Notes under the pieces: model-generated
Database searches by the model: none
What the model saw: only the letters and a program-made list of their open reading frames with translations
What the model was told of the DNA's origin: nothing
Part shown: positions 6,911 to 50,304 of the stretch, in pieces
Layout: every line of letters begins with the position of its first letter
Position numbering within the stretch: the stretch's first letter is position 1
From: Patescibacteria group bacterium
GTDB taxonomy: Bacteria; Patescibacteriota; Minisyncoccia; Phycocordibacterales; JACZSL01
Direction of reading: 5' to 3'
Assembly (NCBI GenBank): GCA_022561335.1
Contig: JADFRL010000001.1
Location: 1 to 59,847, forward strand
DNA length: 59,847 nucleotides
Translations under genes and position numbers: made by a program

Positions 6911-7732
6911 TCACGCTAATATAAAAGTATATTTATATCGAACCAGAAATCCTTCATTAGCTAAATCCTCAAGTAAACATGCGACACGTTGAGGTTTGGC
7001 TTTAAGCTCTTTTGCTATTCTTATTTGAGTTAATTTTTTCTCTACCAAAAATAATTTAAGAATCCGCCCCCGTAATTGTCTGTTTGAACCTTCAAATTTA
7101 CTTTGCTTCGAGTAGTGCTTACTTCTACGATTTTGATTCGGATATTTCCTCTTTAGCATTGCCCCATAATCCATAAGAGCTTGATACCACTGTCGTGGAT
7201 CAGTCCTTTGAAGTGTCCCATCAACAAGTTTTAAGATTTCCTCATCAGAAATTTTTCGCTTAGATTTATCAAAAAAGAAATGGATGAAAACCGTCCGGAT
7301 ATTGGTTTCTATAAAAACCGTCGGTTTATTATAGGCAAAGACGCAGATCGCTCCTGCCGTATAAGGACCAATGCCAGGAAGCTTTACGAGCTCCTCTTTA
7401 GTTCTCGGAAGAACTCCTCCATGATCATTTACCACAATCTTGGCAAGCTCTTTGAGCGATTTTGCGCGCCTGTTATAACCTAACCCCTGCCACTGCCAAA
7501 GAACGTCCCGAAGTGGGGCACTCTCAAGCTCTTTAAAATCGGGAAATCGTTTTATGAAAGCTTTATATTTCTCTTCTGTTCTCTTCGAAGCTTTCGTTTG
7601 CTGGAGCATTATTTCAGACACTAAAATATGATAGGGATTTCTTGTCCCTCGCCATGGAAAATCACGTTTGTGATTTTTGTAATACACGCAAACATTTTTT
7701 TTGAATGTTCCTAATTCTGCCTGTGTTGCCAT
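6911..7732 (-). CDS. HhH-GPD base-excision DNA glycosylase, MutY/A-G adenine glycosylase-like, no Fe-S Cys cluster, C-terminal wHTH-like tail
   Basis: SEIMLQQT.., LPGIGPYTAGAICVFAYN hairpin-helix-hairpin, ALMDYGA. The four-Cys motif expected after this point is absent. Confidence 0.7.
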   Translation of the reverse strand: MATQAELGTFKKNVCVYYKNHKRDFPWRGTRNPYHILVSEIMLQQTKASKRTEEKYKAFIKRFPDFKELESAPLRDVLWQWQGLGYNRRAKSLKELAKIVVNDHGGVLPRTKEELVKLPGIGPYTAGAICVFAYNKPTVFIETNIRTVFIHFFFDKSKRKISDEEILKLVDGTLQRTDPRQWYQALMDYGAMLKRKYPNQNRRSKHYSKQSKFEGSNRQLRGRILKLFLVEKKLTQIRIAKELKAKPQRVACLLEDLANEGFLVRYKYTFILA

Positions 7733-7751
7733 TTTGGTTAAAATATTCTAT

Positions 7752-9071
7752 TTAAATTTCTCCGGTATACGTCACTTTATAAATAACACCGGCTCTATCA
7801 TCTGAAATATACATATCGCCACCTGGTTCAACAAGTATATCAACAGGTCTCCCAAGTACTCGCCCGTCATCGGTGAGCCAGCCTGTGATAAAGTCTTTAC
7901 CTTTTTGAACATTTCCCTCATCATCTAGATCAAACCGTACGATTTTATAACCAGTTGGAACACTGCGATTCCATGAACCGTGGTAGGCTACCAGAAGACT
8001 GTTTTTGTATTCAACGGGCCATCCTAAAGGTGCAAACGAAAGCCCCAATGGGGAAGAATGCGCGGGTATATCAATATAAGAAGGCTCTTCAAATGGAGTT
8101 AAGCATGGTGCACGAATATATACATTGTCATCAAATTCAGTGTCGTGAATATTTTTTCCGTAGCAAACGGGCCAGCCGTAATTTTTGCCCTTTCGTATAA
8201 TATTTATTTCATCTGGCGGCAAATCATCACCTAAGAGATCGCGCCCCATCTCCGTTGCAAAAACTTCGCCCGTTTCAGGATGGATGGTCATAAACACAGT
8301 ATTGCGGAGTCCCGCCGCAAAGTATCCAACACCACTCCCATCCGCTTCTGATGATAAAATAACCGCACGACGGTCATCTTCCTCGTAGCAAACATTACAG
8401 GATGATCCAATAGACGTTAAGAGTTTTTCCCCGTCAGGTGTTTTGGCGAATATAATGGTTCTAGTAAAATGGTTTTTCCCACCGGGTAAATCAATGATCG
8501 TCTTTTTGTTTGATGCTTTAAGATTCTCATCATCGTAGTCATACATAGCCACTTGGTCAGTCTCAGCAATGTAAAGCTTGCATTCATACTCGATACCAAA
8601 CTCACCAAAGGGAAAGCACTTGAATGCAAGACCGTGGGGACGATCGAGTCCCTCAATGACAACGACGGTCTCATTAGCAACCCCGTCTTGATCATAATCC
8701 GGAAGAGCAACAACCTTCCCTTCCTTTGTGATACTCACAATTAGATTACCGGCTATGTCGAGTGTGAGAACCCGTGGTGCAGAAAGACCTTTGGCAAAAA
8801 TTGAAATTGAAAAACCAGGGGGCAGGGTAAGGGGAGATGAACTTTTTTCACGCAACAACTCTCCAATATCTTCTCCGGAACTTTTAATGAGAGGGATAAC
8901 ACCACTTAAGTTTTGAGACGCAAAGCGCCCCACCCCAATAACAACAAAAATAAGAAAGGTGAGAACTGTTAGTGTTACCAACTGTTTGATTACACGATCA
9001 CCTATCACAGTACTGTCACAACAATGCTCCCATTTTCTCCTCGTAATCAGGAAAATGGGAGTTGATTTCAC
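7752..9071 (-). CDS. PQQ-dependent sugar dehydrogenase (soluble glucose/sorbosone dehydrogenase family), membrane anchored
   Basis: 439 aa with N-terminal TM, NYGWP motif and beta-propeller-like repeat character. The start may be internal, because the ORF overlaps 9016..9309 by 56 nt. Confidence 0.7.
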   Translation of the reverse strand: MKSTPIFLITRRKWEHCCDSTVIGDRVIKQLVTLTVLTFLIFVVIGVGRFASQNLSGVIPLIKSSGEDIGELLREKSSSPLTLPPGFSISIFAKGLSAPRVLTLDIAGNLIVSITKEGKVVALPDYDQDGVANETVVVIEGLDRPHGLAFKCFPFGEFGIEYECKLYIAETDQVAMYDYDDENLKASNKKTIIDLPGGKNHFTRTIIFAKTPDGEKLLTSIGSSCNVCYEEDDRRAVILSSEADGSGVGYFAAGLRNTVFMTIHPETGEVFATEMGRDLLGDDLPPDEINIIRKGKNYGWPVCYGKNIHDTEFDDNVYIRAPCLTPFEEPSYIDIPAHSSPLGLSFAPLGWPVEYKNSLLVAYHGSWNRSVPTGYKIVRFDLDDEGNVQKGKDFITGWLTDDGRVLGRPVDILVEPGGDMYISDDRAGVIYKVTYTGEI

Positions 9072-24590: not shown

Positions 24591-24661
24591 TGCCGGATCG
24601 TCTAATGGTAGGACACATGCCTCTGGAGCATGGTATCTTGGTTCGAGTCCAAGTCCGGCAG
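24591..24661 (+). tRNA. tRNA-Gln (anticodon CUG)
   Basis: Hand-folded cloverleaf: acceptor UGCCGGA/UCCGGCA (U1-A72, as in bacterial tRNA-Gln), D stem GUCU/GGAC, anticodon arm CAUGC-CUCUGGA-GCAUG, T arm CUUGG-UUCGAGU-CCAAG. No encoded CCA. Confidence 0.9.
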
Positions 24662-24727
24662 CACTTCGACAAGCTCAGTGCAAACTGAGTGGAGAAGTGA
24701 GCTGAATTTATTGAAGCTCATGAGATA
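24644..24727 (+). repeat. Direct repeat R1 (84 nt). Its first 18 nt are the 3' end of tRNA-Gln
   Basis: 81/84 identical to 24982-25065. Contains hairpin CTCAGT-GCAA-ACTGAG. Confidence 0.9.
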
Positions 24728-24980
24728 TTTTGTATATATAATTTTGTGTGAAAACAAAGGTCTCTACACTGGTTTCAGTACCAATGTAGAGAAACGATTT
24801 GCTAAGCACAAAAGAGGTAAGGGTAGTTCGTATACGCAAGCAAATAAAGCATTGAAGATCGTATATACAGAAGAGTTTTCAACTAAAGGAGAAGCTTTGA
24901 GTCGAGAAGCTCAAATTAAAAGGTGGAGGAGAGAAAAGAAACTGAATCTCATACAATTCGGAAAACTAAAAATTTCATAA
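24720..24980 (+). CDS. GIY-YIG nuclease superfamily protein (small stand-alone UPF0213/COG2827-like)
   Basis: YFVYIILCENKGLYTGFSTNVEKRFAKH (GIY..YTG), later REAQIKRW. The ATG lies within the last 8 nt of R1 and the stop is 1 nt before R2. Confidence 0.8.
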   Translation: MRYFVYIILCENKGLYTGFSTNVEKRFAKHKRGKGSSYTQANKALKIVYTEEFSTKGEALSREAQIKRWRREKKLNLIQFGKLKIS

Positions 24981-24981
24981 C

Positions 24982-25065
24982 CGAGTCCAAGTCCGGCAGC
25001 ACTTCGACAAGCTCAGTGCAAGCTGAGTAGAGAAGTGAGCTGAATTTATTGAAGCTCTTGAGATA
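24982..25065 (+). repeat. Direct repeat R2 (84 nt), starts with a second copy of the tRNA-Gln 3' end
   Basis: See R1. The triplet matching the GIY-YIG ATG is TTG here, followed by TAG two codons later. Confidence 0.9.
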
Positions 25066-25207: not shown

Positions 25208-25267
25208 GACCCAAAGACTATGTTGTACTTTTTGTTAAATTTCCCTTACTCACGTATACTTATAGAC

Positions 25268-25990
25268 ATGTTAGAAATCAAAAATCTTACAAAAACATTT
25301 GACGAACTAAAGGCGGTGGACGATGTGAGTGTTACCATCAAGAAAGGTGAAATTTTTTCCCTCATTGGTCCCAATGGTTCTGGAAAGACCACTATTATTA
25401 AAGTAATTGCAGGACTGCTTCAACCAACCGGAGGAGAGGTGGTAGTGTATGGATCAAATATCTCCGAAGACCCTATCAAATCGAAGTCCCAGATCGGGTA
25501 TATTCCTGATGAACCCACGGTGTGGTCATCAATGACAGGTGAAGAATTCCTTCATTTCACGGGCGCCTTGTTTGGTATTTCAAACGAAGCGCGGGCGAAA
25601 AAAATTTCAGAACTCCTATCACTTTTCAAGCTTGAAGGAATAGAGAAGAATTACTTTGAAAATTACTCACGAGGAAACAAGCAAAAATTTACTATCATTG
25701 CAGCTCTCCTTCACTCGCCTAAGATTCTTCTTATTGACGAACCGATTGTCGGACTTGATCCGCATAGCGCTGAAATAGCAAAAAATACGTTTCGAGAATT
25801 TGCAAACGATGGAGGGCTTATTCTTATGGCAACCCACACTCTCACTGTGGCAGAAGAAATTTCCGACCGCATAGGAGTACTCAAACAGGGAGTATTGATT
25901 GAGAGTGGAACTTTCGAGTATTTAAAGGGCGTTTCAAAACTTGAAGGAGGGGCAACGCTTGAGCAGGTTTACAACGCCCTTGTTGTCTAA
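25268..25990 (+). CDS. ABC transporter ATP-binding protein
   Basis: Walker A GPNGSGKTT, signature YSRGNKQKFTIIAALL (degenerate), Walker B LLIDEPIVGLD. The ATG at 25268 (MLEIKNL) is preferred. Confidence 0.85.
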   Translation: MLEIKNLTKTFDELKAVDDVSVTIKKGEIFSLIGPNGSGKTTIIKVIAGLLQPTGGEVVVYGSNISEDPIKSKSQIGYIPDEPTVWSSMTGEEFLHFTGALFGISNEARAKKISELLSLFKLEGIEKNYFENYSRGNKQKFTIIAALLHSPKILLIDEPIVGLDPHSAEIAKNTFREFANDGGLILMATHTLTVAEEISDRIGVLKQGVLIESGTFEYLKGVSKLEGGATLEQVYNALVV

Positions 25991-25994
25991 ATAT

Positions 25995-27680
25995 ATGACA
26001 GAGCTCCTTTTACAATATTATCGAAATAGATTTACTCGATATTTTCAAAATCAAAAACTCGCAAAACTTATAACAGTCTTTCTGTTTCTCTCAATTTTCG
26101 GCGCTCTTTCCGTCGGGATATATTTTTTTGTAAGAGGAGGACTTCTGTTCACTGTGAACACTCCTTATTTTAAAGATGTCCTCCCTTTATTTCTGTATGA
26201 AATGTTTCTCCTTATCATTGGGTTCCTTGTCATCTTGAGCGCAAGCATCACGGCATTGTATAGCCTTTTCAAACGTGAGAATAACGAATGGGTTATTGCA
26301 TCACCTCGGTTCCACACTGTCCCAACCTATACGGCTTACAGAGTATTTCTCTCTTCACTCTGGCCGTTTGTTCTCATTGCACTCCCTACTCTTTTAGCAA
26401 TGAATACGGTCTTTGGTATTGGGTTATGGAATATAATTGTCGCACTTGTCGCAATACTATTTTTTGTTGCATTTCTTGTATTCGGAACAATGTTCACGAT
26501 TATTATTATTGCATACATTCTCTCCAAAATTAAAATATCAAAAAAGAGTGTTCTTTCATTTTCTCGTCTTGCAGCCACCTGTCTTATTCTTGTTACATTA
26601 CTTGCCGCATTTAGCTGGAACCAAGCATTAGGGGGTGACATTATCGCACTTTTCCAAGCAGATGACCTAACTCAAGAGATAGCAACAATAGGCCCCATTG
26701 CTGAGAGATTTAAAGTCTTCCCGTCTGATCCGCTTGCAACCCTCCTTTTTCAAATACAAACAAAAAGTAACGAGAGCACCCTGGCGCTTCTTGGAGAGAT
26801 TGTTGCACTACTTATTATAAGTATGCTGCTCTTTACGTGGTCAAAAAAATTCTATTTGTCTCTCTGGCAGAAACTTCAGGAAAATAGTTTTGTTGCCAAA
26901 TCGCGAACGACGGGGAGAGTTCCTAAAAGCAGCTTTATACGATTTTTTAAAAGCCCTCTTTCGGCAATATATACGAAAGAGTGGCTTATAATGACGCGAA
27001 ACATTCGCAATGCGATGTGGCTCTTCTTTCTTATGATGCTTCTTTTCATTCAGACAGGATTAAACTTTGTGATGGGAAAAAACATCGCTGTGCATCAACT
27101 TAATATCGAATTATTCCCTAGTATTGTGCAAATTCTTCAGTATGCCACTATTGCTTACTTTATCAGCGCTTTTGTTATTCGTTTTGCACTCCCCTCATTT
27201 AGTACCGAACGCAAAACAGCCTGGATTCTCGCAAGTGCACCTATCGATATAGCAAAGATGTTCTGGTCAAAGTTTTGGTTTTTTAATATAATCTTTCTCG
27301 TTCTCGGCTTCGCCACTTTATTTGTAAACTTTTTTTTCCTTCATCTCAATATCGGCTCAGCCGGTTTTCTGTTTTTCCTCTCATCCATCTCAATTATTTT
27401 TATTACGACACTTGGTCTAAGCCTCGGCGCGATTTTCCCCAATTTCAACACCGATGACCCGCAGGTAATTGCCACGTCATTTCCGGGACTTATTTTTATT
27501 TCCCTCTCGCTTTCATACGGCGCGCTTGGTGCTTATCTTTTCAACGTCACTCTTATTAAAGGAGTATTGTTCCCTCTTTTCAGTTTTATGGTTATTTCAC
27601 TTCTTGTCATTGCTTTCATGCTCTACATTTCTCCGCGTTCCTTGCACCACACTGAGTTCGTTCGAAAATTTACTCGTTGA
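25995..27680 (+). CDS. Polytopic membrane protein, putative ABC exporter permease partner
   Basis: About 560 aa with 12 or more hydrophobic helices. The ATG at 25995 is 5 nt after the ATPase stop. Confidence 0.55.
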   Translation: MTELLLQYYRNRFTRYFQNQKLAKLITVFLFLSIFGALSVGIYFFVRGGLLFTVNTPYFKDVLPLFLYEMFLLIIGFLVILSASITALYSLFKRENNEWVIASPRFHTVPTYTAYRVFLSSLWPFVLIALPTLLAMNTVFGIGLWNIIVALVAILFFVAFLVFGTMFTIIIIAYILSKIKISKKSVLSFSRLAATCLILVTLLAAFSWNQALGGDIIALFQADDLTQEIATIGPIAERFKVFPSDPLATLLFQIQTKSNESTLALLGEIVALLIISMLLFTWSKKFYLSLWQKLQENSFVAKSRTTGRVPKSSFIRFFKSPLSAIYTKEWLIMTRNIRNAMWLFFLMMLLFIQTGLNFVMGKNIAVHQLNIELFPSIVQILQYATIAYFISAFVIRFALPSFSTERKTAWILASAPIDIAKMFWSKFWFFNIIFLVLGFATLFVNFFFLHLNIGSAGFLFFLSSISIIFITTLGLSLGAIFPNFNTDDPQVIATSFPGLIFISLSLSYGALGAYLFNVTLIKGVLFPLFSFMVISLLVIAFMLYISPRSLHHTEFVRKFTR

Positions 27681-27918
27681 AAATATAGAGATACAACTGT
27701 CTCAATTTGATATACTGAAATTACCTGAAATACCCCTCAACGGCTTGCCCAAGTTTGGTTGTAGACCGTGGGTGCCAGAGAGCTTGTGACAGTGACCGTG
27801 ATGAGTCAACACAGCGATATTTTTAATGAGTCAAGTAATCGAGTCCTTGTTCGAGCATGCTATTCAATCGCACGAAATGCGTCGTAATTACAACATCTCG
27901 CTGTAATACAATTAACTT

Positions 27919-29298
27919 ATGGATGAACAAGAGCAACAAAATGAAGCTCAAGAGGAACAGAATGTTCAGATGGAACCAGCTCCACTATCTCCACCCCCTT
28001 CACATACGAAGCTGATAGTCGGCATTGTATTTTTACTTATTGCAGGAATCGCTGGGGCATATTTATTGTTACAACCCAAATCAGAGCCAGTTGATGATAT
28101 TCAAGTGGAAGTATCAGACCAGAATAAACCACCAAAAGGGGAAGAAATTGCACCGACAGTAAATTTAGATATAAAAAATGTAGAAAACGAAATAGATCGA
28201 GTACTAGGACCCTTACTTACACGTTACTATCCTCCTGACGGTTCAACGATATATGTATTGAGATGGACGAATAAAGGAATTGATTTGTTTAACCTTACAA
28301 CTGGACAGGAAAAGATTATAGGTAAGTATGTTACAAAAGGGAGAGTCCCTATTTTTATTATTGAAAATAATGGGCTCTTCTCACCACCGTATATTGTTGT
28401 AAGAAATGAGGAGAACAATGGAATTTTTCGGTATGACATAAAGATGGAAGAGCTGGAGGAACTCATACCTCCTCCAGATGAAGATAAGGCCGAAAGATCT
28501 GTGTACAGTTTTTTAGACGATGACAATAAACTTCTGGTTTCAGAATATCTACCACTACTAGGCATGGAGCAGTCGCTTGATGTTTCTGATTATCTTATTA
28601 ACGTAGTCTCAGGTGTAGTAACAAAATATGAAAATGGGTTTTTCTCGGAAAGACCTCGATGTGGGTATGAGTACTATGACTCAAAACACCAACGTTTTTT
28701 CGATTTTCTTTGTGGTGAAGGAATAGGAAGTTTTGATTTTCCACTCATTGAAGTATCCACAATTGATGGAAGCGAATATATAGTATACGAAAGCTCTTTT
28801 GAGGATGGTGACTATATTGGTAAAAGAGATGGCCTGCTGTTTATTTTTGATTATGATAAGAGTTCTATAGTTATAGTAGACCCACGTAAACTTGAGTCAG
28901 AGATAACTATTTATGAAAATATTTACGATTTTGTTAAATTACCAAGGTGTGGCCAGAGACGTTGGTCTTCTGTACCACTGTTTCTACCTGAAGATAATAT
29001 AATGATTTTATCTGATTCCGATTCGATTTCTTTTCTTTCATTTGATAAAAATAATAGATTACAAAATCATAATTGCATTTTTATAGCCCCCGAAAAATAT
29101 AATATCAATGTAAGATCCTTGTTCTTGTATGACAATCATTTATATTTTCAAATAAGTTTGTCTACCCGAAGAGATGGACAGCGTGTGGGGTCCTATGGCG
29201 GTTATCGTTACCCAGCGGATCAGTGGAAAGAGTATATTACAATTCTTAATCTAGATACCTATAAAACAGTTGGCTCAATACTTATTCAAGAATATTAG
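27919..29298 (+). CDS. Hypothetical membrane-anchored protein (459 aa)
   Basis: Gln/Glu-rich N-terminus, one TM (LIVGIVFLLIAGIAGAYLLL), large Tyr/Asp/Phe-rich extracytoplasmic part. No recognisable domain. Confidence 0.5.
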   Translation: MDEQEQQNEAQEEQNVQMEPAPLSPPPSHTKLIVGIVFLLIAGIAGAYLLLQPKSEPVDDIQVEVSDQNKPPKGEEIAPTVNLDIKNVENEIDRVLGPLLTRYYPPDGSTIYVLRWTNKGIDLFNLTTGQEKIIGKYVTKGRVPIFIIENNGLFSPPYIVVRNEENNGIFRYDIKMEELEELIPPPDEDKAERSVYSFLDDDNKLLVSEYLPLLGMEQSLDVSDYLINVVSGVVTKYENGFFSERPRCGYEYYDSKHQRFFDFLCGEGIGSFDFPLIEVSTIDGSEYIVYESSFEDGDYIGKRDGLLFIFDYDKSSIVIVDPRKLESEITIYENIYDFVKLPRCGQRRWSSVPLFLPEDNIMILSDSDSISFLSFDKNNRLQNHNCIFIAPEKYNINVRSLFLYDNHLYFQISLSTRRDGQRVGSYGGYRYPADQWKEYITILNLDTYKTVGSILIQEY

Positions 29299-29489: not shown

Positions 29490-29539
29490 ATCGTAATATG
29501 AAAAGCCTCAACGTTAATTGGGGTTTTTCATGTTACGAT
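29490..29539. repeat. 15-bp inverted repeat hairpin (ATCGTAATATGAAAA ... TTTTCATGTTACGAT, one G-U)
   Basis: Read directly. The loop is 20 nt. Confidence 0.7.
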
Positions 29540-29665
29540 AGTATGGTGGAGGGACTCGAACAAGCGGAGGTGCGCGCCTTGGAGGCGACAGAGCACCGAG
29601 CTGTGGCCAAGCGCACTTAGTTGAATTGGAGCGGAACGAACAATTATACTTAGTGACGGGTGACT

Positions 29666-29684
29666 CGAGTCCAAGTCCGGCAGC
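29666..29684 (+). repeat. Orphan copy of the tRNA-Gln 3' end (T-loop C to discriminator+1), not part of a foldable tRNA
   Basis: Exact 19-mer match to 24644-24662. The upstream sequence cannot form the T stem. Confidence 0.85.
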
Positions 29685-29739
29685 CAACTCGAGCTAGCAC
29701 GAGATCGTTACGCTCTTCGAGCGCACGAGAAATATATTT

Positions 29740-35744: not shown

Positions 35745-36002
35745 ATCGCGACCGTTCTATGTGAGTCTGGTGCTCTGATTGGAACGGGGATCAAAAACTC
35801 TTAATCTTCCCTATCTAAAACCAAATCAATAATTTGATCCTTAAGCTGACCCCTGGTCATCGCTAGATTTTAACACAAAACAATACCTATGGCGTTTGCA
35901 CAGCGGACCCAGAACACTCATTTCATAAGTGAACGGGCAAGCAGGACTCGGGGTCAAGTTTCTAAACTCGCTTTACTCGTCAAGACCCCCCCGGCCTCGC
36001 AG

Positions 36003-36755
36003 TCACAGAGCGACATCGCTCCGGCCTTTGAGTGTCGGCGCTCGTATCGAGCTTCCCTCAAGCGTAGGATGATTGAGCAATAGAGCTGCTCGATGACTTA
36101 CCCAGCCTTCAAAATCAATAAGCATAAGCTCAACTGAAGCGAGATTTGCACAAGATTCTATTCGCTTTAAATCACCAACAATTAATGCGACATTATTATA
36201 AGAACCAACCTTCCACGATGTACCTGTCATGTAGACACCTGCAATACTGTTTTTATTCCGATCCAAAAGAAGCAGAAAATATATCATCGGCTTATATTTT
36301 TCTGCACGATGCCACTCAATGTACGTGCCATCATAATGCATTACATTTTCAAGATCTATCGTCTCAGCTTTGACTGTAATATATGGTGAGGATATTTGAT
36401 TTAAAAAACTTCTTCCTTTATACGTCGCTAACACTTGCAGTGTCACCCCTTCCGCAACACTGGGTGAAAATGAATAAATAAGAGGGTTTTTGTATGGATG
36501 TAGATCAATCGGAGTTTTTTGTGCGTGTTCATTCTCTACCTTAGACGTTCCGATTGATTTGAGCCTATGGTATGCATGCTTATGGGAGGGAGTAAAAATA
36601 ATTTTGAGCGTACCGTCTGATTCATGCAGTCCACAGGCAATAACTTCATTGTTTGCATATATATTAATGAAGTATCGCGGCACGAAACCAAAAACACGCA
36701 CCATCCAGTCCATATTCCACACCAAAAACTTATAGAACGCCTTTCTCAGTTTCAT
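36003..36755 (-). CDS. Hypothetical protein (250 aa)
   Basis: Long ORF with no recognisable domain. The last ~27 codons run into a GC-rich stretch. Confidence 0.45.
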   Translation of the reverse strand: MKLRKAFYKFLVWNMDWMVRVFGFVPRYFINIYANNEVIACGLHESDGTLKIIFTPSHKHAYHRLKSIGTSKVENEHAQKTPIDLHPYKNPLIYSFSPSVAEGVTLQVLATYKGRSFLNQISSPYITVKAETIDLENVMHYDGTYIEWHRAEKYKPMIYFLLLLDRNKNSIAGVYMTGTSWKVGSYNNVALIVGDLKRIESCANLASVELMLIDFEGWVSHRAALLLNHPTLEGSSIRAPTLKGRSDVAL

Positions 36756-36773
36756 TTGGAGATCAAACAGAAT

Positions 36774-37133
36774 TCATGATAATTTATTTTTGATCAATGT
36801 AATCATTTCCGGTACTGACTTTACACCATCTATTTCAGTATGTGATATTAACAGCTCAACTGTTTCTTTTTTGAGCAAAAAGATTGCAGGCAATGCTGTG
36901 GTTTCATTAGGATATTTTTCCTTAAATTCATCACGGTGAAGAAATTGAACTGGTTGATCCAATGAATCGATAAATTGCTTCCACTCATTTTTCATAGTTC
37001 CAAACTTACCATAGGTCACCATGCAGAGATTGCATTGGTACTCGTCTGGTTTCAGAATCCGTCTAGCAAAATCACTGGCCGCAGCAAATAATGATGAGTC
37101 AGCGTTGTAGATAAATAAGAGTGTACTCTTCAT
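36774..37133 (-). CDS. Hypothetical thioredoxin-fold-like small protein
   Basis: LLFIYNADSSLF.., CNLC motif, ..PAIFLL. The ORF-track start is TTG, so the ATG at 37133 is preferred. Confidence 0.45.
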   Translation of the reverse strand: MKSTLLFIYNADSSLFAAASDFARRILKPDEYQCNLCMVTYGKFGTMKNEWKQFIDSLDQPVQFLHRDEFKEKYPNETTALPAIFLLKKETVELLISHTEIDGVKSVPEMITLIKNKLS

Positions 37134-37233
37134 ACATGCACAGTATAACAAAGTCTTTGATTTCAAAGTAGCAAATTTCTCAGCCTGCAAGAAACTAAAA
37201 ATAACCAGGAGATACCTGACTGCTTTCAGTTTT

Positions 37234-37432
37234 GCGCGGCGGACGGGACTCGGTCACGAGTCACTAAATATTCTACCGCGCTGTGCTTGTAGAATATTAA
37301 GTGCTCTCGACCCCGACTCAGCCCTCCCTCGTCCCCCGGACGCGGGCTTCTGTCTTTCGAGTCCCGTCTTCTACCACAATAGAAAGTAAAATCACCCAGA
37401 AAAATATCTGGGTAATTTTACTTCTGCGCGGC
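37234..37432 (-). repeat. Repeat X: tRNA-Asp 3'-end core (37234-37252) + ~173-nt element + 7-nt partial core
   Basis: Near-identical to 38812-39010. Differences are confined to one hairpin plus 2 nt. Confidence 0.9.
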
Positions 37433-37509
37433 ATCGTGGGCGATGTTAGAACTATTTTCATAAATAAAGGTGACGCTGTTGTGTACTTTCCAGAGATAGG
37501 GGTTATATA

Positions 37510-37561
37510 AAAAGGAAACCGCCCGACCAAGAGAGCCGAGGCGGTCTCTTTGGTGGGCGGT
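37510..37561 (-). terminator. Imperfect GC-rich hairpin followed by TTCCTTTTT on the minus strand, after the 361-aa gene
   Basis: ACCGCCC..AAGAGA / TCTCTT..GGGCGGT arms, 11 nt after the stop. Confidence 0.5.
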
Positions 37562-37571
37562 AGGTAAGCTG

Positions 37572-38657
37572 TTATGCCGCAGCACTTAGCTCGGCAATTC
37601 TTTGAAGGACCTCTGCACGATTGGAGACTCGGTAGAGCTTCTTGAGAGTACCCACCGTTGTAGCATTGGCGAGAGTCTTGGTATACGCACTCTTCCCAAC
37701 TGCGCTACCTAACTCCCCTAGGCGTCGAGCTGCGCTTAGCACATCCAGAAGTCGCTCAAAGGTGTCAGCTTGTTCAAGCTCCTTTGCGAGAAGTTCAAGC
37801 TCCTTTTCAAGGAAGCGGTGACGTATCTCTTTAGCGAGCTTTTGTTCCTCTTTGTCTCGCCATAGAGATTTGTAATCAAGGCGAGATGCTTCCTCCAAAG
37901 AGGAGACCAATTCGGCAAGCCTTTGGAAAAGTAGTTTTCCATCGATTTGCCCATCGAGCTTCTCTACATCATTGAAAGTCTGTGCTTGAGCAAGAGCTTG
38001 CTCGGAAAGTTCGCGGCGTTTCTGCGACAAAATCTCTGCAGCTTGTCCTTCGAGGTATGCTCCCAACAAAGTTTGAACGTCCTTGAGTGTTTCAATCTTG
38101 CTGCACCAACCAATGAGCCCCTCGCTACAGTCGCAAAACAATGGGGCGTATCGGTAATCGCTGTGAATGCGAAGTGCTTCTTTCAACGAAGGTGCGTTCC
38201 TCGTCGCCTCAATCGCCACCTTGTGCAAGTGGGCCCGCGCAGCTTCTTCCTCGATACTGCGATATTGGCAGTAGTCTCGGACCTTGCCCCACAAGTGCGT
38301 TGCATCATCCAAGGTTTTTGCAAGGGAAACAACTTTCTCTAGTGCTTCCTTACGTATACTTGCGTGTCCGAATGCCCACTCAATGATGAAGTGGGCGTCA
38401 GCGTACGTGCTGGCTAACCTCACTTTCTCCAAAATGATTTTGCGGAGTTTTGATTTGGCCGCTGCATACAACTCCTCATTTCTGGCTCGTTCAGAGTGCC
38501 CAGAAGCCCAGCCATGAATCGAGCTGACTTCCTCAATAGTCTCGACTACCCTGAGAAGCTCCAAATCAATAGGAATGCCAAGGTCCTCGGCTATGAGGTC
38601 GATGCGGGAATCCATTTCCCGCGACAGCTTCAAAGCCATTAGTGCGGATTTGCTCAT
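37572..38657 (-). CDS. Hypothetical all-alpha protein (361 aa), GC-rich
   Basis: GGAGGA SD, own promoter-like TATAAT (minus strand, about 38.73 kb) and own terminator. Ala/Leu/Glu-rich helical-repeat character. Confidence 0.55.
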   Translation of the reverse strand: MSKSALMALKLSREMDSRIDLIAEDLGIPIDLELLRVVETIEEVSSIHGWASGHSERARNEELYAAAKSKLRKIILEKVRLASTYADAHFIIEWAFGHASIRKEALEKVVSLAKTLDDATHLWGKVRDYCQYRSIEEEAARAHLHKVAIEATRNAPSLKEALRIHSDYRYAPLFCDCSEGLIGWCSKIETLKDVQTLLGAYLEGQAAEILSQKRRELSEQALAQAQTFNDVEKLDGQIDGKLLFQRLAELVSSLEEASRLDYKSLWRDKEEQKLAKEIRHRFLEKELELLAKELEQADTFERLLDVLSAARRLGELGSAVGKSAYTKTLANATTVGTLKKLYRVSNRAEVLQRIAELSAAA

Positions 38658-38775
38658 TTCATCCTCCGTGGTCTATATGACGTCTGGGACAATCATATAC
38701 TTTCACATAGGTTTTGTCATTTGAAAGCAAAAATTATTATACTAAAGTTTCAGTTCCAACGTCCCGTGAGTATAC

Positions 38776-38802
38776 ACAAAAGAACCTTACGTAGTAAGGC
38801 TC
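38776..38802 (-). terminator. Hairpin GAGCCUUAC-UAC-GUAAGGUUC + UUUUGU on the minus strand
   Basis: Immediately downstream (minus sense) of the second tRNA-Asp core copy. Confidence 0.5.
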
Positions 38803-38811
38803 TTTTCGCAA

Positions 38812-39010
38812 GCGCGGCGGACGGGACTCGGTCACGAGTCACTAAGTATTTTAGTTCGCTTTGCTTCTAAAATACTAAGTGCTCTCGACCCCGACTCAGC
38901 CCTCCCTCGTCCCCCGGACGCGGGCTTCTGTCTTTCGAGTCCCGTCTTCTACCACAATAGAAAGTAAAATCACCCAGAAAAATATCTGGGTGATTTTACT
39001 TTTGCGCGGC
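38812..39010 (-). repeat. Repeat Y: second tRNA-Asp 3'-end core (38812-38830) + ~173-nt element, abutting the real tRNA-Asp
   Basis: See repeat X. Confidence 0.9.
38961..39002 (-). terminator. Perfect 18-bp hairpin directly after tRNA-Asp (AAAGTAAAATCACCCAGA-N6-TCTGGGTGATTTTACTTT)
   Basis: Read directly. The copy in repeat X (37383-37424) has 2 mismatches. Confidence 0.5.
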
Positions 39011-39078
39011 GGACGGGACTCGAACCCGCAACTTCTGCCGTGACAGGGCAGTGCTCTATCCAATTGAACTACCGCCGC
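39005..39078 (-). tRNA. tRNA-Asp (anticodon GUC)
   Basis: GCGGCGG acceptor, anticodon arm CUGCC-CUGUCAC-GGCAG, T arm GCGGG-UUCGAGU-CCCGU. No encoded CCA. Confidence 0.9.
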
Positions 39079-39141
39079 ATTTTTATATTATACAGAAATA
39101 ACGTTATTAATCACGTAATTAATGACGTTATTTCAATCATG

Positions 39142-39215
39142 TGCCGGGAGTGAGAATTGAACTCACGACCTCAGGTTTATGAGTCCTGTGCTCTAACCAA
39201 CTGAGCTACCCCGGC
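39142..39215 (-). tRNA. tRNA with CAU anticodon (elongator Met, or Ile2 if lysidine-modified)
   Basis: GCCGGGG acceptor, GCUC/GAGC D stem, loop CUCAUAA, T arm GUGAG-UUCAAUU-CUCAC. A31-A39 mismatch noted. Confidence 0.8.
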
Positions 39216-39299: not shown

Positions 39300-39340
39300 T
39301 TGCGGGGCCGGGAATTGAACCCAGGTCTGGAGGTTATGAG
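39300..39340 (-). pseudogene. Truncated initiator-tRNA copy (3' half only, anticodon loop to discriminator)
   Basis: 38/41 identical to 50234-50274 of the intact tRNA. Identity stops exactly at the 5' edge of the anticodon loop. Confidence 0.85.
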
Positions 39341-39677
39341 TCTGATTGAGGAGTAACAGAAAAGTAGTCAAAAGACATTGGGAAATAAGAACATGTGTAT
39401 CTACTGAGCCGCTGTTTGTTTTTTGAGAACTTTCCAGTTGTACTCAGCAGATGTCAGATTTAGTCACTTTTTATCACTTTTTGGGCAACCTGTGGGCGAC
39501 GCTTTAGGTTATGCTCGTCTAAATTATTATTGGAAAGAGCAATATAAGAAGAGTGATAAATTTAAGTGGATGTGATTTTATCCACAGAGTTGGCGAATCC
39601 TAGTTACAAACTACTCATATGCAAAAGGTGTAATGCAAAGCTATACTCCAAACTATATATAGGACTAGTTGTGCATT

Positions 39678-50058: not shown

Positions 50059-50233
50059 ACTATTTAATTACTTAAATATTCTTTCGTTGTCGTCAAGGTC
50101 TACCTAATCATTCTGGTAATATTTGGTATTTTTATTTATCCATACAACAATTGTATCACTCACCAAACCAATAACCACACGAAGGTTGTGGTTTTCGGTG
50201 CTAAGTACGTCCTGTAAACTATACCTTAATTTG

Positions 50234-50304
50234 TTGCGGGGCCGGGAATTGCACCCGGGCCTGGAGGTTATGAGCCTCCCGAGGTACTACTCCTCCACCC
50301 CGCT
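50234..50304 (-). tRNA. Initiator tRNA-fMet (anticodon CAU)
   Basis: Aligns to the E. coli tRNA-fMet pattern (xGCGGGGUGGAG...CUCAUAA...CCCCGCAA) with a 1:72 mismatch (A-A). The T loop reads UGCAAUU. No encoded CCA. Confidence 0.8.

Follow-up and report, generated by a model that had tools for sequence, protein, structure and literature searches.

The locus behind the tRNA-Asp gene of a Patescibacteria group bacterium (GenBank assembly GCA_022561335.1, contig JADFRL010000001.1, positions 1 to 59,847; this whole 59,847-nt stretch is referred to as the window) raises the question of why the 3' end of a tRNA should recur downstream of its own gene, together with two copies of a short non-coding element, E, and an orphan gene for a 361-aa protein, ORF361. 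The answer that we favour, with only slightly more than even confidence, is that E belongs to a family of non-coding, orientation-specific insertion units of ~170-190 nt, which reside behind tRNA 3' ends and are moved by an enzyme encoded elsewhere. The family is apparently undescribed, as it has no match in Rfam 15 and no description was found in the literature searched. Site-specific insertions at tRNA genes are known already, and so are recombination sites that are read as folded strands; what appears to be new is a gene-less unit of ~190 nt with a re-programmable mimic of the T-arm and tail of its target tRNA.

The tRNAs in the window were placed with ARAGORN and the covariance models of Rfam 15. 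As the original prediction, made by reading the sequence alone, had stated, the final 19 nt of tRNA-Asp (CGAGTCCCGTCCGCCGCGC, minus strand) occur in three exact copies (Table 1); by pattern count, none would be expected in the window by chance. ORF361 is enclosed by direct repeats of 199 nt, also noticed then, which share 94% identity at a spacing of 1578 nt. The array behind tRNA-Asp consists of a first E copy (E1), the ORF361 cassette, a second E copy (E2), two further orphan open reading frames (ORFs), and a decayed copy, E4. All units (E1, cassette, and E2) begin right after ...GCCGCGC and finish in ...G(C/G)CGCGC, and the 7-nt partial core GCCGCGC that had been described directly before E2 is indeed present. 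Within E1 the order is AAAAG, a hairpin (H1), a spacer, an inverted copy of the T-arm, the helices P2 and P3, and CGAGTCCCGTCC plus GCCGCGC, which form the second core. H1 is the perfect 18-bp hairpin that had been seen abutting the tRNA. With an A-run on its 5' and a T-run on its 3' side it is terminator-like on either strand, and it is part of E. The inverted 13-mer, TTCGAGTCCCGTC, exists in both E copies as predicted, but the second copy lies at 37356-37368 and not, by a slip of 10 nt, at 37366-37378.

Units are gained or lost precisely among strains that are 98-99% identical to the window. Strain contigs carrying ORF361 or ORF250, the 250-aa orphan ORF beside the locus, were fetched from ENA and Logan assemblies; ORF250 occurs there in 11 near-identical variants, and ORF361 only in the window record and two Logan runs. 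One allele, in which tRNA-Asp is followed by E1, the cassette, E2, and the flank, is shared by the window and the Logan assemblies L043 and L044 (SRR28296001 and SRR28285075; 98.3% identity). A second, L046 (ERZ23499381; 98.4% identity), has tRNA-Met, tRNA-Asp, a single E, and the ORF138 flank. Its BLAST segments overlap by exactly the 199-nt repeat, which means that exactly 1578 bp, the cassette and the second E, are absent; the cassette is therefore polymorphic for presence and absence, as the original prediction had led one to expect. The E of L046 is E1-type at 11 of 11 diagnostic positions, which confines a crossover from an ancestor with the first allele to the last 34 of the 199 nt, core included. 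L038 has the same E1-type hairpin beside the flank. The third allele, L039 (ERZ23486734; 99.1% identity), involves the right end of the ORF361 cassette, 28 nt (AGTTCTAACATCGCCCACGATGCCGCGC) that close with the same 7 nt as the tRNA. Here ...AGTTCCAACATCGTCCACGAGGGCGCGC is fused directly to AAAAATGAAAGCAG..., i.e., the left boundary of E2 adjoins the right flank and E is missing. Upstream of the shared 28 nt L039 has no match to the window and thus carries a different cassette with the same right end. The view of a self-contained cassette flanked by repeats has to be revised accordingly: the cassette and E2 are separate units, since in L039 these 28 nt terminate another cassette and are not followed by E. 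The tRNA-Asp array is best read as a series of independently gained and lost units.

That the repeats are an assembly artefact, caused by a collapsed or duplicated region, is extremely improbable, although several short contigs of related strains break inside E, as repeats would. L043 and L044 are independent assemblies and reproduce the cassette with its E ends, which settles this doubt, already voiced with the original prediction, in favour of a genuine arrangement. E-family copies also occur in unrelated assemblies, and E1 and E2 differ at 11 positions, 9 of which fall in the P3 hairpin (37262-37303 in E2) and include three compensatory pairs.

The empty site of L039 and the filled site have a common segment of only 7 nt (GCCGCGC/GGCGCGC). 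Hence the preceding 12 nt, CGAGTCCCGTCC, belong to E, as the 3' strand of its own closing helix, and the T55/C56 boundary probably marks the edge of a tRNA-mimicking helix, whereas joining would take place at the very 3' end of the tRNA (or of a pseudo-tRNA tail). The original prediction had taken the common T-loop position at which the cores begin as a hint of one recombination system; because the L039 empty site shares just the 7 terminal nt, this position is probably not the crossover. Among specific candidates, a crossover in the T-loop and a 19-nt target-site duplication by staggered cuts were both rejected on the ground that the left and right copies at E2 have just 7 nt in common, and a TaqI-like cut-and-ligate reaction at T/CGA because the T is missing at the junctions.

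On the tRNA strand, E folds into the 18-bp hairpin H1 and a three-way junction of ~125 nt (-101 kcal/mol, z = -9.1). The closing helix of the junction, P1, has 11 bp (GACGGGACTCG/CGAGTCCCGTC) and pairs the inverted copy of the tRNA T-loop and T-stem (T54-C66) with a direct copy of C56-C66, after which the unit ends in the acceptor 3' strand. The earlier description of core sequences in both orientations within each unit holds insofar as both copies exist, but they are better understood as parts of a three-way junction whose closing stem mimics the T-arm. This junction is backed by covariation in P2 and P3, and the sequence of P1 changes with the tRNA that it copies. RNAalifold analysis of 8 members yielded a common three-way junction with compensatory changes in 19 of 33 pairs, and in a model-based alignment of 11 sequences 90% of the cells are paired and 22/33 pairs change on both sides. 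Shuffling of the latter alignment never attained the observed pairing (0/500), and only about 35% remained paired when the partners were slid by 1-3 columns. In 10 of the 11 members the tRNA-sense strand forms a more stable fold than the complementary strand does. The G.U pairs are also found on the sense strand, and one of them, at the base of P3, is kept in 9/11. The tip of P3 is a GC(N3-4)GC mini-hairpin, often over tandem G.A pairs, and the distance from the inverted to the direct copy ranges from 91 to 113 nt across members. A search with Rfam 15 returned nothing but tRNAs for the window, both at the gathering threshold and at E up to 10, and the sub-threshold matches are irrelevant. Hammerhead and other small ribozymes, tmRNA, and a tRNA-like gene on the plus strand were rejected, as no model matched and the sense strand folds better.

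E is not confined to this locus, a point on which the original prediction had partly hinged; both pattern and model searches retrieved a family in other genomes. A pattern consisting of the inverted 11-mer, 90-120 nt, and the direct 11-mer gave 10 hits in one genome for each of 185,579 species and 27 in metagenomes. In 11 of the 37 cases the hit directly follows a tRNA gene (L001, L002, L004, L006, L007, L017, L021, L024, L025, L031, and L036; two pairs among them are duplicates), whereas the 21 hits lacking a tRNA are unrelated to E and represent either long perfect palindromes or matches by chance. All 11 tRNA-linked members share one layout: the tRNA, a hairpin with A-run and T-run, an inverted T-loop/T-stem copy, two to three GC-rich hairpins, a tail copy, and a terminator of the locus. 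The equivalent of H1 is found in every family member, and the tail copy consists of the final 19-21 nt of the local tRNA, including CCA where the tRNA encodes it. Besides the presence of H1, three shared features were not imposed by the pattern. The inverted 11-mer continues with AA in every inspected tRNA-linked member and thus spans T54-T55, the direct copy starts at C56 and never after TT, and the acceptor tail fits the local tRNA except in L017 and L001. The hosts are CPR-like (candidate phyla radiation) bacteria, in which E lies at tRNA-Asp, and one genome each of the Coriobacteriales (E at tRNA-Gly) and the Oscillospiraceae (E at tRNA-Leu); a metagenome contig, L036, contains at least two tandem 191-nt units behind tRNA-Gly.

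A covariance model built from the family (R1) and searched against the window and the fetched loci found copies outside the reach of the pattern, namely at tRNA-iMet in L024 (2220-2327), at tRNA-Met in L025 (7034-7141), and in the window itself (E3, 29551-29676), in addition to the weak, decayed E4. In the clear hits, P2 and P3 are recognisably those of the family, but P1 has been remade to fit the T-arm sequence of the respective local tRNA. A check of all tRNAs in the fetched loci added tail duplications behind tRNA-Val (L004), where the unit carries the family's GCGAAGC-topped hairpin, and behind tRNA-Met (L006). In total, the family extends over several phyla and no fewer than seven tRNA types (Asp, Gly, Leu, Gln, Met, iMet, and Val). 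In the related genomes L006, L024, and L025, the sequence that occupies the tRNA-Asp site has diverged strongly but keeps the same fold. At L036 1238-1572 (Gly), L024 2200-2330 (iMet), L025 4840-4880 (Asp), and L004 5724-6050 (Val), E units in tandem or nested order and additional decayed tails indicate repeated insertion at the same sites. Two members deviate. In L017 (CPR, 1394-1490) the inverted copy spans the whole 21-nt tail of tRNA-Asp, the direct copy downstream has just 11 nt, and the inverted copy and H1 form a hairpin of ~45 bp that includes the tRNA 3' end. In L001 (Saccharibacteria, 7255-7952) the 3' part of a tRNA can be recognised upstream of E, but ARAGORN calls no tRNA, and a LAGLIDADG-like ORF (7581-7952) is located just upstream, so that a tRNA intron may be present.

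These data bear on a more conventional explanation, according to which the array consists of remnants of ordinary tyrosine-integrase islands, with the cores as attL and attR, E as the joined arms of attP, and the cassette polymorphism as the result of homologous recombination between the 199-nt repeats. It is textbook knowledge that such islands use tRNA 3' segments as att cores, leave the tRNA restored, and form tandem arrays; Williams is said to have distinguished, in 2002 (Nucleic Acids Res 30:866), sublocations of integration within tRNA genes. The tRNA genes of this genome are also insertion hot spots, as shown by a tRNA-iMet fragment at 39300-39343 and a GIY-YIG unit at tRNA-Gln (see below), and a serine recombinase-like ORF, recognised by eye, is located 2.8 kb from E in L024. 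However, arm-type sites that are bound as duplexes would show neither covariation of stems, nor strand asymmetry, nor a conserved three-way junction. The same unit of ~190 nt recurs across phyla in the absence of an integrase in all inspected loci, its inverted copy and closing helix are re-matched to each tRNA, and the E1-type E of L046 forces the crossover into the terminal 34 nt instead of the long identical stretch of the repeat. We consider this explanation quite unlikely. No integrase adjoining E was found in L002, L004, L006, L007, L017, and L025, as judged by eye among the ORFs listed. The ORF in L024 (6015-7583) encodes 522 aa and has N-terminal motifs that by eye resemble a large serine recombinase, and its C-terminal coding sequence runs into tRNA-like sequence; a link to E is not established.

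Alternatively, the primary role of E could be that of a functional structured RNA, transcribed from the tRNA strand as part of the tRNA trailer or as an independent small RNA between two terminators, with its spread and the tail copies being secondary. The helix of E would then mimic or pair with the tRNA T-arm; this reading is compatible with mobility. Besides the covariation, several traits of the tRNA-sense strand suit such an RNA (internal loops rich in purines, G.A pairs in tandem, apexes of the GNRA-like type, and the conserved G.U), as do the terminator-like hairpins on both sides of E and the diverged sequence of the same fold that fills the tRNA-Asp site in L006, L024, and L025. Inspection by eye, however, revealed no shared promoter-like site between H1 and the junction, and H1 resembles an efficient terminator placed upstream of the latter. 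The distribution over 185,579 species is rare and sporadic, and a genome may hold several copies at different tRNAs, some tandem or decayed, that are precisely gained and lost in near-identical strains; moreover, E matches no Rfam family even at E up to 10. A primary role as an RNA is an unlikely, though not a negligible, possibility. If it applied, E would represent a class of structured RNAs tied to tRNA 3' ends that matches no described family found.

If E is an insertion unit, as we prefer to think, its mode of action might be as follows. The unit would insert immediately after the 3' end of a tRNA gene, or after a short sequence resembling that end, and each insertion would recreate a tRNA-like tail that the next one could use. 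A trans-acting enzyme encoded outside the window, such as a recombinase or an HUH-type transposase, would move the units; its substrate would be the tRNA-sense single strand in its folded form, as ssDNA or possibly as RNA. The feature to be recognised would be a helix followed by a tail of 8-9 nt, which looks the same in the tRNA T-arm with its acceptor tail and in P1 of E with its own tail, and the enzyme would join or exchange strands within the final 7 nt or fewer of the tRNA-like tail, not in the T-loop. The logic of this mechanism would be that of integron attC sites, of the folded attP of CTX-type phages, or of single-strand HUH transposition. In a more speculative version, which we regard as rather improbable, E is a retargetable, self-guided mobile nucleic acid whose inverted 13-mer pairs with the intact T54-C66 of the tRNA gene or tRNA. 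Such pairing could position a nuclease, recombinase, or reverse transcriptase acting in trans, the unit being joined 8-9 nt further on at the tRNA 3' end, and the closing helix P1 would be a cis mimic of the guide-target duplex. Swapping 13 nt would then redirect the element to another tRNA, as is seen in the family, whose members are matched to Asp, Gly, Leu, Gln, Met, iMet, and Val. A true guide of this kind would make E a new kind of programmable element.

Several observations weigh against E being a mobile unit, or against parts of this mechanism. The enzyme was not identified within the 59.8-kb window, and its action in trans is what we infer. The family is rare: with this T-arm and gap range, 5 tRNA-linked hits were obtained from the genomes of 185,579 species. 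Searches of viral contigs for the exact E segment and for the gapped inverted/direct pattern gave 0 hits, so that a free or vectored form was not seen there, and blastn of an E member against plasmids and phages found no match. In the 11 pattern-derived members the sequence of P1 was imposed by the search pattern, and independent support for this helix comes from 3-4 model hits. E3 is fixed in both related strains examined (L047 and L048), where the tRNA-Gln/E3 region shows no polymorphism. The differences between alleles could also result from homologous recombination between the 199-nt repeats (L046) or from microhomology deletion at the 7 nt (L039), and L046 could be an assembler mis-join through the repeat. 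Regarding the latter, ORF361 is absent from every ENA assembly with ORF250, which argues that L046 truly lacks the cassette.

Table 1. Coordinates of the features discussed (positions in the window).
Feature	Position	Strand	Remarks
tRNA-Asp (GTC)	39004-39078	-	ARAGORN; Rfam tRNA 66 bits; CCA not encoded
19-nt core copies	39004-39022; 38812-38830; 37234-37252	-	exact
199-nt direct repeat	37234-37432; 38812-39010		
E1	38812-39003	-	192-nt unit, begins directly after tRNA-Asp 3' end; model score 89.5 bits
H1 of E1	38961-39002	-	perfect 18-bp hairpin, arms 38961-38978 / 38985-39002
Three-way junction of E1	38820-38946	-	P1, P2, P3 by folding and covariation
P1 of E1	38936-38946 paired with 38820-38830	-	
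P2 of E1	about 38893-38932	-	
P3 of E1	38831-38890	-	variable hairpin 38840-38881 inside
Inverted 13-mer of E1	38934-38946		
ORF361 cassette unit	37426-38811	-	1386 nt
Terminator-like hairpin	38785-38799		upstream end of cassette
Promoter-like site	38692-38720		
ORF361	37572-38657	-	361-aa all-helical orphan protein
Terminator-like hairpin	37522-37540		downstream of ORF361
E2	37234-37425	-	second 192-nt unit; model score 85.9 bits
H1 of E2	37384-37423	-	
Inverted copy of E2	37356-37368	-	
Three-way junction of E2	37242-37368	-	
Core 3 (in E2)	37234-37252	-	
Two orphan ORFs (119/138 aa; 250 aa)	36003-37190	-	between E2 and decayed E4
E4 (decayed)	35941-36039	-	model 19.6 bits, E 0.022; weak call
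E3	29490-29687	+	model hit 29551-29676, 35 bits, E 4e-6; tRNA-Gln core 29666-29684

Of the known systems, integrons resemble the array in that units, often with orphan genes as cargo, are gained and lost independently beside a fixed entry point. The attC sites of their cassettes, like E, are set by their fold instead of their sequence, with an inverse-core/core helix under a variable and sometimes branched top, and one strand is the folded substrate of an enzyme supplied in trans, as we infer for E. However, the entry point is a tRNA 3' end and not attI, the array abuts tRNA-Asp, and IntI was not seen. The RYYYAAC/GTTRRRY boxes of attC are not found in E, whose inverted and direct copies derive from the T-arm, and the helix copies the T-arm of the target. 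Most units are empty (E alone), and the ORF361 cassette ends in the 28-nt sequence, not in E. IntI, attI, or Pc were not found beside the array, and no tyrosine recombinase was found in the window. The absence of a recombination system from the window, as originally predicted, agrees with the lack of any recombinase among its ORFs (ORF list, with Pfam applied to a subset and the remainder judged by eye).

CTX-phi, which integrates at dif by means of a folded (+)ssDNA attP and host XerCD, has a right junction in which an inverted site, about 100 nt, and a direct site follow each other (attP2-spacer-attP1/dif). E likewise has two inverted sites that pair in one strand (91-113 nt apart, against about 90 nt in CTX-type attP), carries no integrase, and forms tandem arrays, but it targets a tRNA tail and not dif, has a length of 192 nt, contains no phage genes, and had no hits in viral contigs. 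Islands and satellites that target tRNAs (tyrosine-integrase elements, tycheposon-like elements) lie between copies of tRNA 3' segments, leave the tRNA intact, grow behind it by successive insertions, and have older, more decayed units farther out, as is the case here. In contrast to these, neither the 59.8-kb window as a whole nor E or the cassette within it was found to contain an integrase, E is a folded non-coding segment of ~190 nt, and comparison of empty and filled secondary sites leaves 7 shared nt at the very end of the tRNA. The palindrome-associated transposable elements (PATEs) of IS200/IS605, mobilised by Y1 HUH enzymes through peel and paste, are strand-specific and rich in hairpins, insert 3' of a short specific sequence, and leave a precise empty site; the loop of a hairpin, in which E3 is located, would be single-stranded. 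The L039 empty site and the filled site are compatible with such an insertion, but an identity of 7-19 nt between target and element end is atypical, the end of E repeats 19-21 nt of the target, and neither TnpA nor TnpB was seen in the 59.8-kb contig. We know of no IS200/IS605 PATE that mimics a tRNA T-arm helix. Finally, the msr-msd region of retrons (about 110-135 nt) has a similar closing duplex of inverted repeats, one or more short hairpins, and a variable hairpin of some length that adjoins the duplex at its 3' strand. E differs in being tied to a tRNA tail and in being followed by terminators and orphan ORFs, and no branching-G context could be made out; a retron was rejected since there is no reverse transcriptase, and a diversity-generating retroelement for the same reason and because the differences between E1 and E2 are not adenine-specific.

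If E is what we propose, tRNA genes of candidate-phyla bacteria with small genomes and of some gut Firmicutes and Actinobacteria would be docking points for a cassette-like system, whose cis element would be a folded mimic of a tRNA T-arm and tail, ~190 nt in length, and not a protein-coding mobile element. Recombination sites that are read in the form of folded single strands would then number three, the others being integron attC and CTX-type attP, and E would be a case in which site identity has visibly been reprogrammed between tRNAs. It would also help to explain how orphan genes enter and exit reduced genomes. The covariance model and the defined empty and filled sites offer a handle on the enzyme through co-occurrence.

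The cassette itself contains, in this order, a terminator-like hairpin, a promoter-like site, the Shine-Dalgarno sequence GGAGGA, ORF361, a second terminator-like hairpin, and the 28-nt right end. These signals had been predicted, and so had a GC content (about 0.49-0.53) above that of the neighbouring genes (0.34-0.46). The protein had been described as having no nameable domain, and in agreement with this Pfam, PADLOC, and PHROGs assign ORF361 to no family. Libraries of 5.8 billion and 1.8 billion proteins, examined by word-indexed as well as exhaustive HMMER searching, yielded nothing beyond E about 1e-4, and the marginal matches at this level are proteins without informative domains. The single-sequence AF2 model is poor (pLDDT 55), and Foldseek found for it only non-significant similarity to generic helical repeats (best E 0.04, TM 0.24). 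We infer that the cassette is cargo located in the array and that exchange between the 19-nt cores allows it to move in or out jointly with E2.

Two further copies of E in the window extend this picture. E3, on the opposite strand, has the closing helix and the tail of tRNA-Gln and provides the third occurrence of the 19-nt tail of this tRNA, which lends weight to the earlier suggestion that one system acts on both tRNA-Asp and tRNA-Gln. The tRNA-Gln gene is 5 kb away, and the immediate neighbours of E3 are a 459-aa orphan ORF on one side and a NUDIX gene on the other. E3 occupies the loop of a hairpin of 10 bp (CTAGCTCGAG...CTCGAGCTAG) and follows GGTCAGC, which resembles the tRNA-Gln end CGGCAGC. 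The ABC-transporter genes at 25220-29298 may be native or cargo of a large unit bounded by E3; insertion of E3 at a secondary site in the hairpin loop is the simpler reading. E4 consists of a P2 beginning with GGCCGGAGCGATGTCGC..., a P3 apex, GAGTAAAGCGAGT, and then CGAGTCCTGCTTGCCCG, in which 11 of 19 positions agree with the Asp core; E4 overlaps the 3' end of the 250-aa orphan ORF. Its position beyond the two orphan ORFs suggests that this weakly supported copy is an older unit, which may mark the old distal end of the tRNA-Asp array. The two ORFs have no Pfam match, and homologues were found only in near-identical strains; judged by their position relative to E4, they could represent older cargo within this array.

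Other tRNA-associated features of the window are independent of these copies. The final 19 nt of tRNA-Gln(CTG) are repeated at 24982-25000 (region 24591-25065), where direct repeats of 84 nt, comprising this tail and ~65 nt of trailer, surround an 86-aa GIY-YIG ORF (24720-24980; Pfam E 1.7e-19). This unit has no E module and is also present in the related strain L047. Between tRNA-Met and tRNA-Asp, an AT-rich palindrome (39095-39134) of 20+20 nt with 90% complementarity and no spacer gives rise to spurious sub-threshold Rfam matches. Just upstream of tRNA-Met (39141-39215), a 44-nt 3' fragment of tRNA-iMet (39300-39343) extends from the anticodon stem to the 3' end and is identical to the tRNA-Met at 50233-50304 in 40 of 44 positions; it looks like the scar of another insertion event, of the anticodon-loop type.

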